From: Eledone cirrhosa
Taxonomy: Eukaryota
Direction: 5' to 3'
Assembly: GCA_964016885.1 (NCBI GenBank)
Contig: OZ024740.1
Location: 52,452,001 to 52,516,000, forward strand
DNA length: 64,000 nt
The translations under genes were made by a program, and so were the position numbers. Positions 17,593 through 56,952 of the stretch are shown one piece after another. Under the pieces are notes generated by a model. That model saw nothing but the letters and a program-made list of their open reading frames with translations, searched no databases and was not told the DNA's origin. Positions within the stretch are counted from its first letter, which is position 1. The number at the start of each line of letters is the position of its first letter.

Positions 17593-17799
17593 AATGAAAG
17601 AAGTGTGGTAAGGAACCAGATGGACCATAACGCACTAGAGTACTCAATACTTAGGGTAGTAGAGTGGGTAATAGGAAAATGTTCAAGACCCCGACGACAG
17701 AGCTCAAGTCGTTTCGACGGCTATTTCTGAACTAAATAGTCCAGAAATAGCCGTCGAAACGGCTTGAGCTCTGCCGTCAGGGTCTAGAACATTTTCCTA
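17593..17799 (-). mobile_element. Hairpin+tail element, copy B
   Basis: Tail 17593-17672 plus near-perfect palindrome 17673-17798; ends in TA. Confidence 0.88.
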
Positions 17800-18112
17800 T
17801 ATATATATATATTAAGAGTTTAGATCGATTGTTCGCTCAGTGGGATTAACGTGTAAGTAAGTGACTTTTCGACAGACACGTGTACTCTTATCGTAATTTT
17901 CAAGGAGATTCAGTTTGATACAGTATATGATAAGGCTCGCCTCTTTTGAATAACAGATACAGTCCACCCAACGAGCTTCCTATAGTTTAACAGTCAATGT
18001 CTCCCACGGACATTATTTAGAGTTCCCTAGACACAAGCACTTACCACCACTTTATATTTCCGTAGAAAATGGGACGTTTGAGTCACCATCGACCAGAAAG
18101 AAAACTCCTTAA

Positions 18113-18281
18113 TAATTGTTTCTACTTTTGGCACAAGGCCAGCAATTATCCCAGTGCATTACTGGTATTTTATGTTATCGACCTCATAAGGATGAAAGGC
18201 AAAGTTAACCTCGGTGGGATTTGAACTCAGACCGTAAATGAGCGTAACTCTATGCTGCAAAGCATAGCATTCGACCCTCTA
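18113..18281 (-). mobile_element. Nin-domain tRNA SINE
   Basis: Same consensus as 4083-4267. Confidence 0.83.
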
Positions 18282-18741
18282 GCGTTGTAAACAGAGCTCC
18301 CACAGGATATGCCAAGTCACTTGACACAATTCGAAGTGGAAGGCTAACATATCGGAATTCTGCAAGGCGCAGCGGTGATAACACTGCTAAGGTTGCATTC
18401 CGTGCAGGGATGATGACACCTTGGTTCCCTCTGGAATTATACTTCATATATGATTTGAACTGGAACAAGATGAAAGTTTCAGATTAAAGAGGTATTATAT
18501 ATCCATATATACCATTGACTAACGCATGTGCATTCTCTACACGCTTGAATATGTACTTCATTCTCATTGCCTCTTTAATTATTAGACTATTCTCTTGTAT
18601 TGTTGTACAATTCTCGTATAATATATGTCGCATACATTACACCCTGTAAATACTAAACTGTTGTTCACAACATCAATATATATGTATCTATATGATTGTT
18701 CAGTTGAATAGGAGGTTAATTATATGTACAAACATTGATAA

Positions 18742-18787
18742 TGCTCCGATGATTCCAACTAAAGTTTGGAAGAAACCATTGTCAGCA
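18742..18787 (+). ncRNA. Type I hammerhead ribozyme, C4 core variant
   Basis: TGCT CCGATGA TTCCAA-ctaaagt-TTGGAA GAAA CCATTG TC AGCA. Confidence 0.72.
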
Positions 18788-18860
18788 AATAAATGATTTG
18801 AACATAACTTTGATACTTGTGTAATGTATATATATATATATATATATATATATTATATAT

Positions 18861-19058
18861 AGGAAAAGAGTCAGGACCCTGACGGCTGAGCTCCGGCCGT
18901 TTCGACAGCTAGATCCGAACTGTTCGGATCTAGCTTTAAAATGGCGGAGCTCAACCGTCGGGGTCCTGACTCTTTCCCTATTACCCACTCTACTACCCTA
19001 AGTATCGAGCACTCTGGTGCGTCATGGTCCACCTAGTTTCTTGCCACACTTTATTTGT
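18861..19058 (+). mobile_element. Hairpin+tail element, copy C
   Basis: Palindrome 18861-18980 plus conserved tail; TA tracts on both sides. Confidence 0.88.
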
Positions 19059-19252
19059 ATATATATATATATATATATATATATATATATGGTTGAGTTA
19101 ACCCAGGAGTATACTAACTGCTTTTTCTAGCAAATATGTTATTCGCTCACTGTCCACCTTACTACCCTTCTGTGACCACTGTGTTAATTTCTCCCTGCGC
19201 CTCTCGAGATATTCTCACTTGCTACGAAAGAAACAGTCCTTTTTTCTGAAGG

Positions 19253-19345
19253 GTCTCTTGATAAGCCGTATCAACCTCACAGCGATGATGCATTTTTATA
19301 GTGCAAAATACATTGCACACGGATCGGCGAAACTGCAGTCGGAAC
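19253..19345 (+). ncRNA. Hammerhead ribozyme, U3-A8 core variant, long stem II
   Basis: GTCTC TTGATAA GCCGtATC...GATCGGC GAAA CTGCAG TC GGAAC. Stem I has one mismatch. Lies in an island of about 300 bp between TA tracts. Confidence 0.62.
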
Positions 19346-19934
19346 TTTGAAGAAAACATAGGTACATTCTTGTTTATTATTTCCTCATATTTTGTAATTT
19401 ATATATATATATATATATAATACAGATGTGTGTGTGTGTGTGTGCGTGTGTGTGTTTCTCCTTTTTATGCCAAGGAATGGAGAGTACGAGACGGATGTAG
19501 TTCTCCAATCCGTAAATGGGATGGTGGGAGAGGTAGTAACTCTGAATAAGAACTGACTCAGGCAATGATGACCTGTTCAACAGATCTAAAGAAGAATAAA
19601 TTTTCCCATCATATATGAAAACATAATGATACACTAATGACGAGTGAAATTTAAATACTATTAAAACAACCTGGATATGAATACATATGTATAAAGAATT
19701 GTATGCCATAGGTTTAGGCAACATATACTTAGTGTCACTGTGATTACCTGTAGTTCGTATCACTGAAACTTCAGTAGTTAAATGAGGATTGAGCAACTAG
19801 TTTCTTCTTTCTTAGGACTTATAAATCACAATTGAAAAGGAAGATAAGCTATACATGTTGAATCTTACAAAGAGTAGTTGAACGATTCACGCACATACAC
19901 ACACACACACATACATACATATATATATGTGTGT

Positions 19935-20345
19935 GTGTGTGTGTGTATGTATGTATATATATATACATGTGTATATGTGTGTGTAAAAACGGATATGTAT
20001 ATATATACATGTGTATATGTGTGTATAAAACAGATATGTATATATATATACATGTATATATATACATATATATATATACATGTGTATATGTGTGTATAAA
20101 AACAGATATGTATATATATACATGTATATATATATATATACATATATATATATATACATGTGTATATGTGTGTGTATAAAAACAGATATGTATATATATA
20201 CATGTATATATATATATGTATATATATATATATATATATATATATATATATGTGTGTGTGTGTATGTATGTATGTATATATATATATATATATATATATA
20301 TATACATGTGTGTATATGTGTGTATATAAACGGATATGTATATTT
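19935..20345. repeat. Minisatellite of about 40-60 bp units built from TA/TG repeats
   Basis: Recurring GTGTATAAAAACAGATATGTATATATATACATG. Confidence 0.85.
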
Positions 20346-54350: not shown

Positions 54351-54511
54351 AATACCACTTCTTGTAGCAAAAACAGCAAAGGCTGTCCTACATTGAAACT
54401 TTCGTAGTGTAAAATCATGTTATAAGTCTAAATTGGTTATTCATTCTTAATTTATATATATATATATATATATATATATATATATATATATATATATATA
54501 TATATATATAT

Positions 54512-55128
54512 TATAATTGAATATAAAAAAAAAGATAAACACAGTATTTACATATATGTGTTCAAATCGTAAGGGAACAGATTCGTATTTTTTAGTATTT
54601 TTTTCACCTTAGCGAATCTGGTCCCTTTCAATTTGAACACATATATGTATATATCTGTGTTTATCTTTCTTTTATATTCAATTATAATATACGGCTCGGA
54701 AAAATCTCTTTCCTAGAGCTATTTTATTGTAAGAGAGTATTTTGAGCTTCTAACTCAATATATACCTTTGATATATTCGGCTCCGTTAATTTGTTGAGCT
54801 AATTCAAATGTCGAGTAAACCTGGCTGCTATTTTTAGTGGTGTGAGCTTGTGAGACACGCTAAGTTTCGATACCATGTGCGTTATTATATATACGCACAC
54901 TATTCAGTTTTTTTAATATACTTAGAAGTGACCAGGATACTAATTCTTCACCCACTGACGAGCAAGAATCGGTATTCCTCTTCACAATCAATTTGCGAAA
55001 CTGCATAGCCAAACGCTGTCTGGGTGATTGGTAGTTACCACAATTCCGATTTGAATTTATTTTCTTGATTTATTCTTAAATTGAGACTGGCAAACCCTAT
55101 CGTCCATATTTAGTATTTTTTTCCTTTG
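54512..55128 (+). mobile_element. Retrozyme-like unit of about 518 nt with inverted 5' arm
   Basis: Inverted repeat 54512-54585 / 54612-54688; TAGTATTTTTTTC at 54593 and 55111; contains an HHR; TA flanks. Confidence 0.7.
54949..55026 (+). ncRNA. Type I hammerhead ribozyme, canonical core
   Basis: CACCCA CTGACGA GCAAG...TTTGC GAAA CtGC-atagccaaac-GCtG TC TGGGTG. Confidence 0.85.
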
Positions 55129-55160
55129 ATATATATATATATATATATATATATATATAT

Positions 55161-55363
55161 AGGAACCAGTAAGACCCCGACAGCTGAGCTCAAGCCGTTT
55201 CGACGGCTAATTCTGGATTAGCTAATTCTGAATTAGCCGTCGAAACGGCTTGAGCTCAGCTGTCGGGGGTCTTACTGGTTCCTATTACCCACTCTACTAC
55301 CTCAAGTATTGAGTACTTTGGTGCGTTATGGTCCACCTGGTTCCTTACCACATTTCCTTCGTT
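55161..55363 (+). mobile_element. Hairpin+tail element, copy F
   Basis: Palindrome 55161-55283 plus tail; TA flanks. Confidence 0.88.
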
Positions 55364-55399
55364 ATATATATATATATATATATATATATAATATAGAAA

Positions 55400-55450
55400 A
55401 GCTTCTACAGGACTAAAAATGTTTCATTCGTGAGAAATCATCAGGAAGCT
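55400..55450 (-). ncRNA. Type I hammerhead ribozyme, canonical core
   Basis: Minus strand: AGCTTC CTGATGA t-TTC-tcac-GAA-t GAAA CA-tttttagtcc-TG TA GAAGCT; at the 3' end of an island of about 290 bp. Confidence 0.8.
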
Positions 55451-55869
55451 GACCGTCCAAGTAATATGGTGGTATTTATATCTTTTCTGGTGGTAGGAGA
55501 GGAGGTGATTAGGATGGGTGGAGGTCATTGGTTGATGGGTTTAAAGAAAAGGGAATTCATTAAAAGCTATATTTAGAGTTACAAAGGCAAAAAGAATTCT
55601 ATAAACAAGTTCATACTGGGGGTGCCACTCCTTATTTTTAAGATTCACTTAAGCTAACAATGCCTATAGTCAGGTGCCTACACGCACATTCACACACACA
55701 CACACACACACACACACACACACACACACACACATATATATATATAAAGCTCTTACTCCCACACACTTGCAAAAAGACACACTCTTATATATATATATAT
55801 ACATACACACACACACACACATATATATATATATATATATATATATATATATATATATATATACACAAA

Positions 55870-56620
55870 TTAAAATGATGAATTAGAAATAGATGCCAGG
55901 ACTACCTATCATTAGTGGTCTACTAGCCATCATAGATGTTTCTTTGCATTAAAGATCAGATACCTCAGGCTAGCGCGAACAATAACTAAAATAAGTTATT
56001 GCGATAAAAAGAATTGGGTGGAGAAAGAGAGACAGGTAAACAAACATGAATGGTGAAGCAACGTAAGGAGAGGAAAAAATGAGAAAATCAAATCAATGAT
56101 TCATTTGAACATAAGAACTTGCGAATATTGACGAGAAGACGAAAGACACATCTTAACCGTGCGAAAGTAAGCGAGGAAAGAATTTCGCACTTTGTGGGAC
56201 GATGGAGGAAGTGGGAGAGAGGGTGAGTAGCAGAGAGTGAGTGATTGAAAGTGTGAGGAAAAGGCTAGCCGAGAGAGGGTGACTAGCAGAGGGGGTGAAT
56301 GAAAGTAAGAGGGAGAAGGAGAGAGAATGGGGAGAGAGAAAGAGGATAGCAGTAAGGGAAGAGAAAAGGACAGGTCACAGCGAAGGGAAAAGCATGTAGG
56401 AATGAAAAATTGTGTGCTGTGTTTTGCAAATGTGATATACAAATTAATATGAAGAATTAGAAATAGAAGCCAGGACTATCCATCATCAGTGGTCTACTAG
56501 CCATCATAGGTATTTCTTCGCATTAAAGACCAGATACCTCAGGCTAGCGCAAACAATAACTAAAATAAGTTATTGTGGTAAAAAGAATTGGGTGGAGAAA
56601 GAGAGACAGGTAAACAAACA
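55870..56620. repeat. Partial tandem duplication, period about 574 bp
   Basis: About 170 bp at 55881-56046 repeated at 56455-56620, between TA/CA tracts. Confidence 0.85.
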
Positions 56621-56706
56621 CGAATATTTATAAAACAAACTTTGTATTTTATCTATTTGTCGGACTTCAAACAAATTAAATACCCCTTCTACTTATATAT
56701 ATATAT

Positions 56707-56952
56707 AGGAACGAGTAGGACCCCGACGGCTGAGCTCAAGCCGTTTCGACGGCTAATTCTAGACTCACTCTCTGCTACTCACCCTCTCTCCCACTTCCTC
56801 CATCTGGACTCTGAGTCCAGAATTAGCTGTCGAAACGGCTTGAGCTCAGCCGTCGGGGTCCTACTCGTTCCTATTACCCACTCTACTACCCTAAGTATTG
56901 AGTACTTTGGTGCGTTATGGTCCATCTGGTTCCTTACCACATTTCCTTCGTT
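56707..56952 (+). mobile_element. Hairpin+tail element, copy G (longest loop)
   Basis: Palindrome 56707-56872 plus tail; TA flanks. Confidence 0.88.

Follow-up and report, generated by a model that had tools for sequence, protein, structure and literature searches.

How does a genome come to be seeded with short hairpins that each hold only half of a ribozyme? This question is raised by a stretch of 64,000 nucleotides from Eledone cirrhosa (GCA_964016885.1, contig OZ024740.1, positions 52,452,001 to 52,516,000 of the forward strand), hereafter the window, in which an initial annotation had described seven copies of a family made of a hairpin and a conserved tail. All seven are present where it had placed them, and both the three arm pairs that it quoted and the motif GAAA-CGGC(TGAGCTCA)GCCG-TC-GGGGT read in the sequence as claimed. 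Six of the copies consist of a palindrome, one arm of which abuts (TA)n at TTCCTAT and the other arm of which continues into an 80-nt tail that terminates in TTCGTTAT-(TA)n. These copies are terminal stubs of an autonomous Penelope-like element (PLE) of the Hydra clade, and we propose that they were probably made when its reverse transcriptase (RT) primed both broken (TA)n ends at two fixed sites in the RNA, with the resulting cDNAs joined head to head. The proposal starts from what is directly seen in the copies, namely a parent element with its open reading frame (ORF), fixed outer ends, inner ends at positions -60 and -19 from the inner priming site, new junctions and mixed sources.

The short copies share their 3' end with a PLE that has Hydra-clade motifs

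A 21-mer from the tail has 37,335 exact matches in the 3.0-Gb genome and its reversed control has none; there are at least 37,335 tails genome-wide, an abundance far above chance. The window is locally rich in copies, because 20 evenly placed 10-kb stretches held only four tail matches. Copies were sampled from the window, from these 20 stretches and from the loci around the first tail matches on contig C1, and the sample leans to young copies because it was chosen by an exact 21-mer. Sense ends were counted in a set of 120 copies distinguished by coordinate, and left (inverted) arms in a set of 115 copies deduplicated by sequence, in which identical young copies are merged (the left-end classifier of the 120-copy set was crude, leaving 29 as 'other'). 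Very short palindromes (first 50), mixed events (first 100) and palindromes ending at -60 (first 100) were counted by hand.

Five of the first 30 tail loci extend upstream into longer conserved sequence, and it was through this tail sample that the parent was located; a search anchored on CTGANGA returned 28 matches, mostly chance hits or chimeras, and a looser version returned 63. The parent reads ACCCC-UUGANAA-G..CGGCUA-(long stem II)-UAGCCGUC-GAAA-CGGC-loop-GCCG-UC-GGGGU, and upstream of this hammerhead lie about 1.3 kb of untranslated region (UTR) and then an ORF with RT and GIY-YIG domains. The annotation had foreseen a parent in which a hammerhead precedes this arm and tail and which is linked to a PLE ORF. 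Such a parent exists, and the tail and arm do stand at the end of RT/GIY-YIG elements, but its core is UUGANAA (U3-A8) rather than the expected CUGANGA.

By eye, the parent ORF, 717 aa in length, shows the RT motifs DIESYY and YRDD and, at its C terminus, a VIY..YIG domain, and this single RT and GIY-YIG ORF bears out the supposed membership in the PLEs. A Pfam search of the parent ORF at locus L111 gave no match; 403 homologues were found, with identities of 35-52% among the 120 listed, nearly all of them unnamed. PLE hallmarks are seen as well, in the form of partial tandems forming pseudo-long terminal repeats (pLTRs), an inverted 5'-truncated copy and a one-sided tail (L159, L111, L109 and the arrays described below). 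Set against the published list of Hydra-clade motifs (PMC8557442; here and below, comparisons with cited papers draw on the accessible parts of their text), the RT has RLRWRT, a K to R variant of RWK, and SDKTGN, with DKT replacing DKG; the linker has CxCX5C as CNCPDRSIC and no CCHH; and the endonuclease has one C between VIY and YIG, CNLCSEE, and LLNK...CKH (CxxC and CxH around the catalytic E and N). The (TA)n target of that clade is found too, with a TA run after the tail in 111 of 115 copies and before the inverted arm in 88 of 93 (deduplicated set). By these motifs, rather than by a tree, we class the family as an autonomous Hydra-clade PLE with a variant hammerhead and a 3.5-kb unit.

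Seven tandem arrays were examined. Six of them (L308-L309 and L311-L314) consist of three to four full head-to-tail units of about 3.53 kb with most ORFs intact; four of these six have intact ORFs of 717-719 aa, and two ORF arrays end in an inverted partial copy. One 3.5-kb array has an identical break in two units. At L310 (G000:C2:356029800-356032040) there is a retrozyme-like array of about 7.6 tandem 299-bp units, each made of the family's hammerhead (stem II shortened), tail and 5' UTR. The 3.5-kb arrays are consistent with copying around a circular RNA. In tandem parents, the tail runs on into the 5' UTR, and the ATG comes about 90 nt after it; the tail and the two priming sites therefore lie inside the RNA.

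The parent also refutes the idea that the copies derive from a DNA transposon, either a miniature inverted-repeat transposable element (MITE) or a Helentron-like element, with inherited terminal inverted repeats, an idea to which we give next to no probability. The clustering of arms by subfamily and the TA target would suit it, yet the arms correspond to the 3' end of an element that encodes an RT, the partner is no DNA transposase, arm length ranges from 19 nt to 2.4 kb instead of being fixed, junctions are unique to each copy, and the tail is one-sided. The family seeds the genome with many short perfect hairpins, which annotators would likely file as MITEs or short interspersed elements (SINEs).

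The parent carries a variant type I hammerhead motif

The right arm, which the annotation had described as half a hammerhead, is indeed the 3' half of the parental motif. The 5' half has 5,696 matches in the genome (N7 free, both arms counted), with position 7 taking all four bases and U3 paired with A8 in most of them. The same U3-A8 pair is found in 18 of 22 aligned parents, which were chosen from 6 subfamilies. Across these 22 parents, 87.5% of cells are paired as in a type I hammerhead versus 26-45% in slid controls, and three stem II pairs are altered on both sides; because the parents are related sequences, this covariation represents a few events and not 22. The variable outer arm of the short copies is an internal loop of hammerhead stem I, which differs among subfamilies. 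With three stems, supported by pairing, around a core that has a 3-8 pair and an NUH site, we classify the motif as a type I hammerhead with a U3-A8 core in place of the canonical CUGANGA, for which cleavage is predicted. An Rfam search of the window gave no hammerhead match at E<=1.

The outer ends are fixed and the junctions are new

The layout of the copies, in which an inverted tail-less copy is joined to a tailed one, is a published hallmark of PLEs (PMC8557442, PMC3846280). Here it is seen with arms of 19 nt, of 60 nt and of 0.5-2.4 kb, at sizes from 40 bp to 5 kb, and therefore it is independent of snap-back at stem II. The left end lies at TTCCTAT on (TA)n, as the annotation had it. 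More precisely, the outer ends fall at site I (TTCC|TAT) on one side and at site T (TTCG|TTAT) on the other in 39 of 41 junctions, and in 20 of 20 in a second set, with a few tail-tail cases; the two sites are 80 nt apart and define the tail. Also in line with the annotation, the junctions are made at insertion. Among 42 of them 39 are distinct. Relative to the tail, spacers are found either way round, which shows that they were not passed on from copy to copy and that the two arms terminate independently of each other.

These ends bear on the source of the left arm, which the annotation had attributed to self-priming. According to this explanation, one cDNA (or an antisense transcript) folds back on stem II and copies itself until TTCCTAT meets (TA)n; self-priming via an antisense transcript has been proposed for rotifer PLEs and was there called unresolved (PMC3846280). 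In nearly all of 100 copies the two arms belong to one subfamily, which fits self-priming, and at this level the reported co-variation of the arms stands. At the level of single copies it does not: in an alignment of 100 copies the left arm was strictly closest to its own right arm in 7, tied in 46 and better matched by another copy's arm in 47. Other observations that self-priming would explain are private changes on both arms in several copies (L022, L081 and L126), the stem II loop as spacer at L087, the common short fold-back spacers (a few bases at cDNA ends) and internal palindromes in chimeras of other families. However, snap-back predicts a spacer with the stem II loop and 5' strand, a zone in which just 2 of 120 copies end, and it predicts some loop, if only a small one, whereas blunt centres are found at both boundaries (CG at -60 and CCCC|GGGG at -19). 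A non-parent base is gained by each arm independently. Moreover, some copies are impossible to derive from one cDNA. The inverted arm, which under snap-back is never longer than the sense arm, exceeds it in 14 of 71 copies (1,466 nt versus 152 nt at L149), and mixed insertions are seen: at L005, L011 and L015 the antisense 3' end of another hammerhead-bearing family is joined to an arm of the stub family with a TA flank on each side, and L167 and L169 have arms from two subfamilies. (No rate follows from the first three, because these loci came from a biased search.) Self-priming is thus largely refuted as the main route and is in our judgement improbable, although it may explain a few copies with a stem II loop spacer; the copy ends favour twin priming on sense RNA over this published idea. 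Separately, L006, L017 and L040 are chimeras that switch from another PLE family to the stub family at or near hammerhead stem II, with short shared words.

Most inner ends lie near position -60

Seventy-three of the 120 tailed copies start at -52..-67 from site I, as do 3 others from which an internal piece has been deleted, and these starts often carry an extra G. Of the rest, 33 stop short of this zone, 2 start at -68..-110, and 9 extend beyond the entire hammerhead. Inverted arms end at -52..-67 in 71 of 97 cases (deduplicated set). Position -60 is the A of TTAGT/TCAGT, which is kept in all subfamilies despite a differing adjoining loop and which we take, from general knowledge, to resemble an initiator (TYAGT). 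Palindromes with both arms at -60 in one subfamily had 960 matches, of which the first 100 were read, and 40 loci with -60 ends, picked for informative spacers, were examined further. One-base spacers at -60 were C/G in 12 and A/T in 3 events; the long parents seen for that subfamily template only A/T at this place. Ten -60 events have a C after the left arm plus a G before the right arm. Similar spacers, less clean, were found in a second subfamily group, in which some parents have TCAGT. In 3 of 30 cases (L279, L282 and L299), copies starting at -56/-57 continue past the tail into the 5' UTR. Contig depth rises about 6-8-fold at the -60 place in runs X1 and X4, a step that does not stand for copy number; the contigs of these runs are of unknown kind and do not reveal starts.

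Beside this main class there is a second junction cluster (AAATTT, nine events) in which both arms end at -63/-64, adjoining an initiator-like TCATTT; this cluster may mark another start site. We also weighed AGTC^CAG as an additional cleavage site but discarded it, since AGTC is kept in many copies.

A further class of inner ends coincides with the predicted cleavage site

Very short palindromes number 421 genome-wide. Among the first 50, both arms end exactly at GTC^GGGG in 21 and within 4 nt in 8 more, one arm only does so in 3, and 18 reach into stem III, with 11 of those joined at the palindromic loop. The bases added at the cleavage site are mostly A/T, as are all six one-base spacers; the ratio of C/G to A/T among one-base spacers is therefore 12:3 at -60 versus 0:6 at the cleavage site (Fisher p=0.0015). 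The two inferred RNA 5' ends, with their different added bases, thereby provide an internal control. Mixed events, with one long and one short arm, number 576, and among the first 100 there are 22 that begin at the cut site. On a rough scaling, there are about 240 events with both arms at the cut versus about 130 mixed ones, which is unexpected for independent RNAs and suggests that both cDNAs likely come mostly from one RNA.

A proposed twin-priming mechanism and its rivals

We propose the following course of events. The endonuclease would cut both strands of (TA)n, the two target ends would prime at I and T respectively, in most cases on a single RNA, and the second RT would displace the first cDNA. 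A PLE RT has been reported to cut and extend both strands and to initiate at two internal positions that delimit the tail (PMC11167929). Most RNAs would start at the initiator TYAGT inside hammerhead stem II and hence hold only the 3' half of the ribozyme. Such a start site inside the ribozyme would directly explain the 'half a hammerhead'; in Penelope, the pLTR contains the start site (PMC2377424, PMC8557442). cDNAs primed near the capped 5' end would reach the end of their template after about 60 nt and acquire a C opposite the cap; an untemplated 5' G has been taken as cap copying for L1 and SVA (PMC4859970). RNAs with the whole hammerhead would self-cleave at GUC^GGGGU, and cDNAs made on the cut product would run off after 19 nt and gain an A. 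The cDNA ends would then be joined bluntly, by microhomology or after a few-base fold-back, and longer RNAs, when primed at their downstream I/T pair, would give rise to the long and tandem copies.

Several points weigh against this proposal. The start site, the cap and the cleavage are read from genomic copies, and the use of one RNA with strand displacement is something we infer. The spacers CAG, CCAG, CAGAAAT, AGAATT and GAAAT can also be written as a short fold-back onto the cDNA's own end or CTG. Because such fold-back gives the same spacers, the C excess at -60 is no clean test of the cap and the 21:0 ratio of C to T among longer spacers is not decisive; the C at -60 may stem from hairpin priming as well as from the cap. 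At the cleavage site, only 8 of 120 copies end at -18..-24, with no clear peak, and about 8 of the 22 mixed cut-site cases share microhomology. The sense arm is longer than the inverted one in 24 of 71 copies versus 14 for the reverse, an excess that snap-back allows and that speaks for self-priming, and palindrome centres delete after insertion, which can mimic arm asymmetry. Finally, the parent folds with hammerhead topology, yet its stability is not above that of shuffles (z -0.23), and one subfamily has a C3.A8 mismatch.

Twin priming could also be right with other causes for the inner ends, -60 being the point where RT stalls at a bound protein or the distal stem-loop, or where a nuclease cuts, and -19 a stalling point at the three-way junction. 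The ends do spread over -54..-64 rather than falling on a single base; TTAG is also paired in distal stem II, and for that reason its conservation may be structural; the added C can come from fold-back; and the Poseidon PLE used uncleaved RNA in vitro, with no reads ending at the cleavage site in the accessible account (PMC11167929). What a stall explains less well is the sharp upper edge, with almost nothing at -68..-110, the presence right at both boundaries of non-parent bases, as at template ends, which differ between the two, and the position of the -19 class on the exact predicted bond in both arms. We consider stalling or cutting an unlikely cause of these ends.

A separate question is which transcripts serve as templates. 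Most short copies might come, as in SINEs, from transcripts of earlier short copies that have the start site and are moved by the PLE protein with the same twin priming. Short copies exceed tail-to-ORF junctions more than 100-fold (37,335 versus 237, the second pattern being narrower), decay-type changes are common to both arms of some copies, and non-autonomous PLE derivatives are known (PMC8557442). On the other hand, no junction is inherited, the aligned subfamilies all have long parents, the copies starting at -56 enter the 5' UTR, and the cleavage-site copies require a whole hammerhead. This source is in our view somewhat doubtful as the main one, and it is compatible with the rest of our proposal.

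More tentatively, twin priming on sense RNA can be extended to a reading, which we hold possible, in which the stubs record the whole PLE cycle: the promoter would start the mRNA within the hammerhead and so leave a capped 5' half-ribozyme unable to cut in cis, a downstream complete copy would cut in vivo, and a dimeric RT would prime both (TA)n ends at two fixed sites of one RNA. The cut downstream hammerhead may then yield the circles behind the 3.5-kb and 299-bp arrays. If true, this reading would account at once for the role of the ribozyme, the inverted pLTR and the tail, and it may hold for PLEs generally.

Copies and related sequences in the window

Two copies of the window, those listed by the annotation at 3891 and 17593, have the tail on their left side, and the element is thus on the minus strand. 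The first, an older stub of subfamily B (3888..4061), has its tail at 3888-3952, its palindrome at 3953-4034, a tail-less arm that extends to TTCCTAT at 4061, and a deletion within the tail-side arm. The second (17588..17800) has its tail at 17588-17670 and its palindrome at 17671-17800, with a tail-less arm that starts exactly at AGTCC (17738). The remaining copies are on the plus strand. A subfamily B stub at 18859..19058 has its palindrome at 18859-18981 and its tail to about 19058. The stub at 24425..24519 lacks an inverted arm and consists of 14 nt of arm plus tail, fused directly to (TA)n, which agrees with the truncation that the annotation had read in this tail-only copy. In the subfamily C stub at 44994..45179 (palindrome 44994-45100, tail to 45179), the sense arm runs from AGTCC (45040) with a non-parent G just before it, and the subfamily A stub at 55159..55365 (palindrome 55159-55285, tail to 55365) has an inverted arm of 58 nt, a sense arm of 54 nt and a spacer of 12 nt.

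The subfamily E stub at 56705..56954 (palindrome 56705-56874) reaches -60 with both arms, which are separated by a 48-nt spacer (56766-56813) that has a non-parent C first and a non-parent G last. All its landmarks are on the plus strand. AGTCCAG (56814..56820) marks position -60, where short copies most often have their inner end; its A is that of the initiator-like TYAGT in the parent, the proposed capped start inside stem II. The hammerhead 3' half, comprising GAAA, stem III with its palindromic loop and GTC^GGGG, lies at 56832..56858, with the predicted cut between 56854 and 56855. It is followed by the inner priming site I (TTCC|TAT, 56868..56874), where the tail-less arm joins (TA)n, and by the 80-nt tail (56875..56954), which runs from priming site I to priming site T (TTCG|TTAT).

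Other sequences of the window are related in part. Beside the copy at 55161, a canonical-core hammerhead (CTGATGA..GAAA..GTC) of a different family lies on the minus strand at 55395-55452; relatives in L031, L037, L040, L054 and L058 have a CACTCTACTAC tail motif in common with the stub family. Related Hydra-type PLE fragments, with 39-56% amino acid identity to the parent ORF, lie at 21490-23967 and 48869-49453, the former with the same inverted layout and outer arms of 429 nt. We rejected a Naiad identity for these window fragments on the order of their domains. The stub family itself also differs from Naiad, its endonuclease being C-terminal (N-terminal in Naiad) and a hammerhead being present (none in Naiad). 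At L119:2455-4596 (minus strand), a 714-aa open RT and GIY-YIG ORF of a different PLE clade stands beside a stub-family copy. An 854-nt perfect palindrome adjoining a TA run (61350-63057) and a 591-bp unit repeated inverted and in tandem (58666-61320) each resemble a product of the same kind from another family. The window also holds degraded copies of a non-LTR (long terminal repeat) retrotransposon with apurinic/apyrimidinic (AP) endonuclease and RT at 7691-16251 and 28762-31516, which we take to be L1/Tx1-like.

Comparison with known systems

The origin of the inverted and tandem structures of PLEs and the question of whether PLE hammerheads cleave in vivo are described as open in PMC8557442, PMC3846280, PMC4209133 and PMC11167929, and the copy ends give unusually direct, testable evidence on these two points. 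In this family, the ends of tens of thousands of natural insertion products can be mapped with single-base precision, and intact ORF copies are available for biochemistry. The element class, the layout of an inverted copy plus tail and the U3-A8 core have all been published before; the novelty lies in the points at which the arms end. In the literature outside subscription papers, as far as its text was accessible, we found no proposal of twin priming for PLE inversions, of a start site within a PLE hammerhead or of genomic copies that end at the cleavage site. The family may already bear a name in Repbase, Dfam or a subscription paper. It had no match among the hammerheads in the accessible File S2 of PMC8557442, including that of Hydra-1_oBim, and a search for the stem motif in the accessible supplement of that paper gave 0 matches.

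In its single RT and C-terminal GIY-YIG ORF with the same motif set, the family resembles the Hydra clade of C-terminal endonuclease-positive (EN+) PLEs (Hydra-1_Obim, Penelope-13_HM), with which it also has in common the (TA)n target, a hammerhead near the 3' end, an inverted 5'-truncated copy and a tail (PMC8557442). It differs from that clade in its unit (3.5 kb versus generally under 3 kb), its tail (80 nt versus a typical 30-40), its hammerhead (a U3-A8 core, a long stem II and a 5-bp stem III versus a canonical minimal one) and in that most copies are palindromic stubs of 100-200 nt. The U3-A8 core, the opposite-strand pairs 100-700 bp apart and the palindromic loop 3 are also known from the Cercyon hammerheads of Schistosoma (PMC4209133); those motifs, in contrast, are minimal with almost no stem III, and their stubs and ends were not analysed in the accessible account. 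Like animal non-LTR retrozymes (bioRxiv 10.64898/2026.07.22.740005), the family yields PLE-derived hammerhead repeats, and the 299-bp array at L310 is one; unlike those tandem monomers, each window copy is one palindromic stub that holds half a hammerhead.

The Poseidon PLE PAc of Anolis in vitro (PMC11167929) likewise has two internal RT start sites that bound the tail, cuts and extends both target strands, and has an AT-rich target and a hammerhead upstream of the start sites. It differs in that no RNA ends were found at the cleavage site and uncleaved RNA was the main template there, whereas a class of genomic copies ends at that site here; the start sites of our family, moreover, share 3-4 nt with (TA)n. 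Finally, L1 twin priming (PMC4859970, PMC11702581) would be paralleled by a second target end that primes on the RNA, by an inverted piece joined through microhomology or end joining, and by an untemplated G at 5' ends that are capped in L1 and presumably capped here. In L1, however, adjacent stretches are copied and the second site varies, whereas here both sites are fixed and the same stretch is copied; because both cDNAs copy the same stretch, palindromes result.

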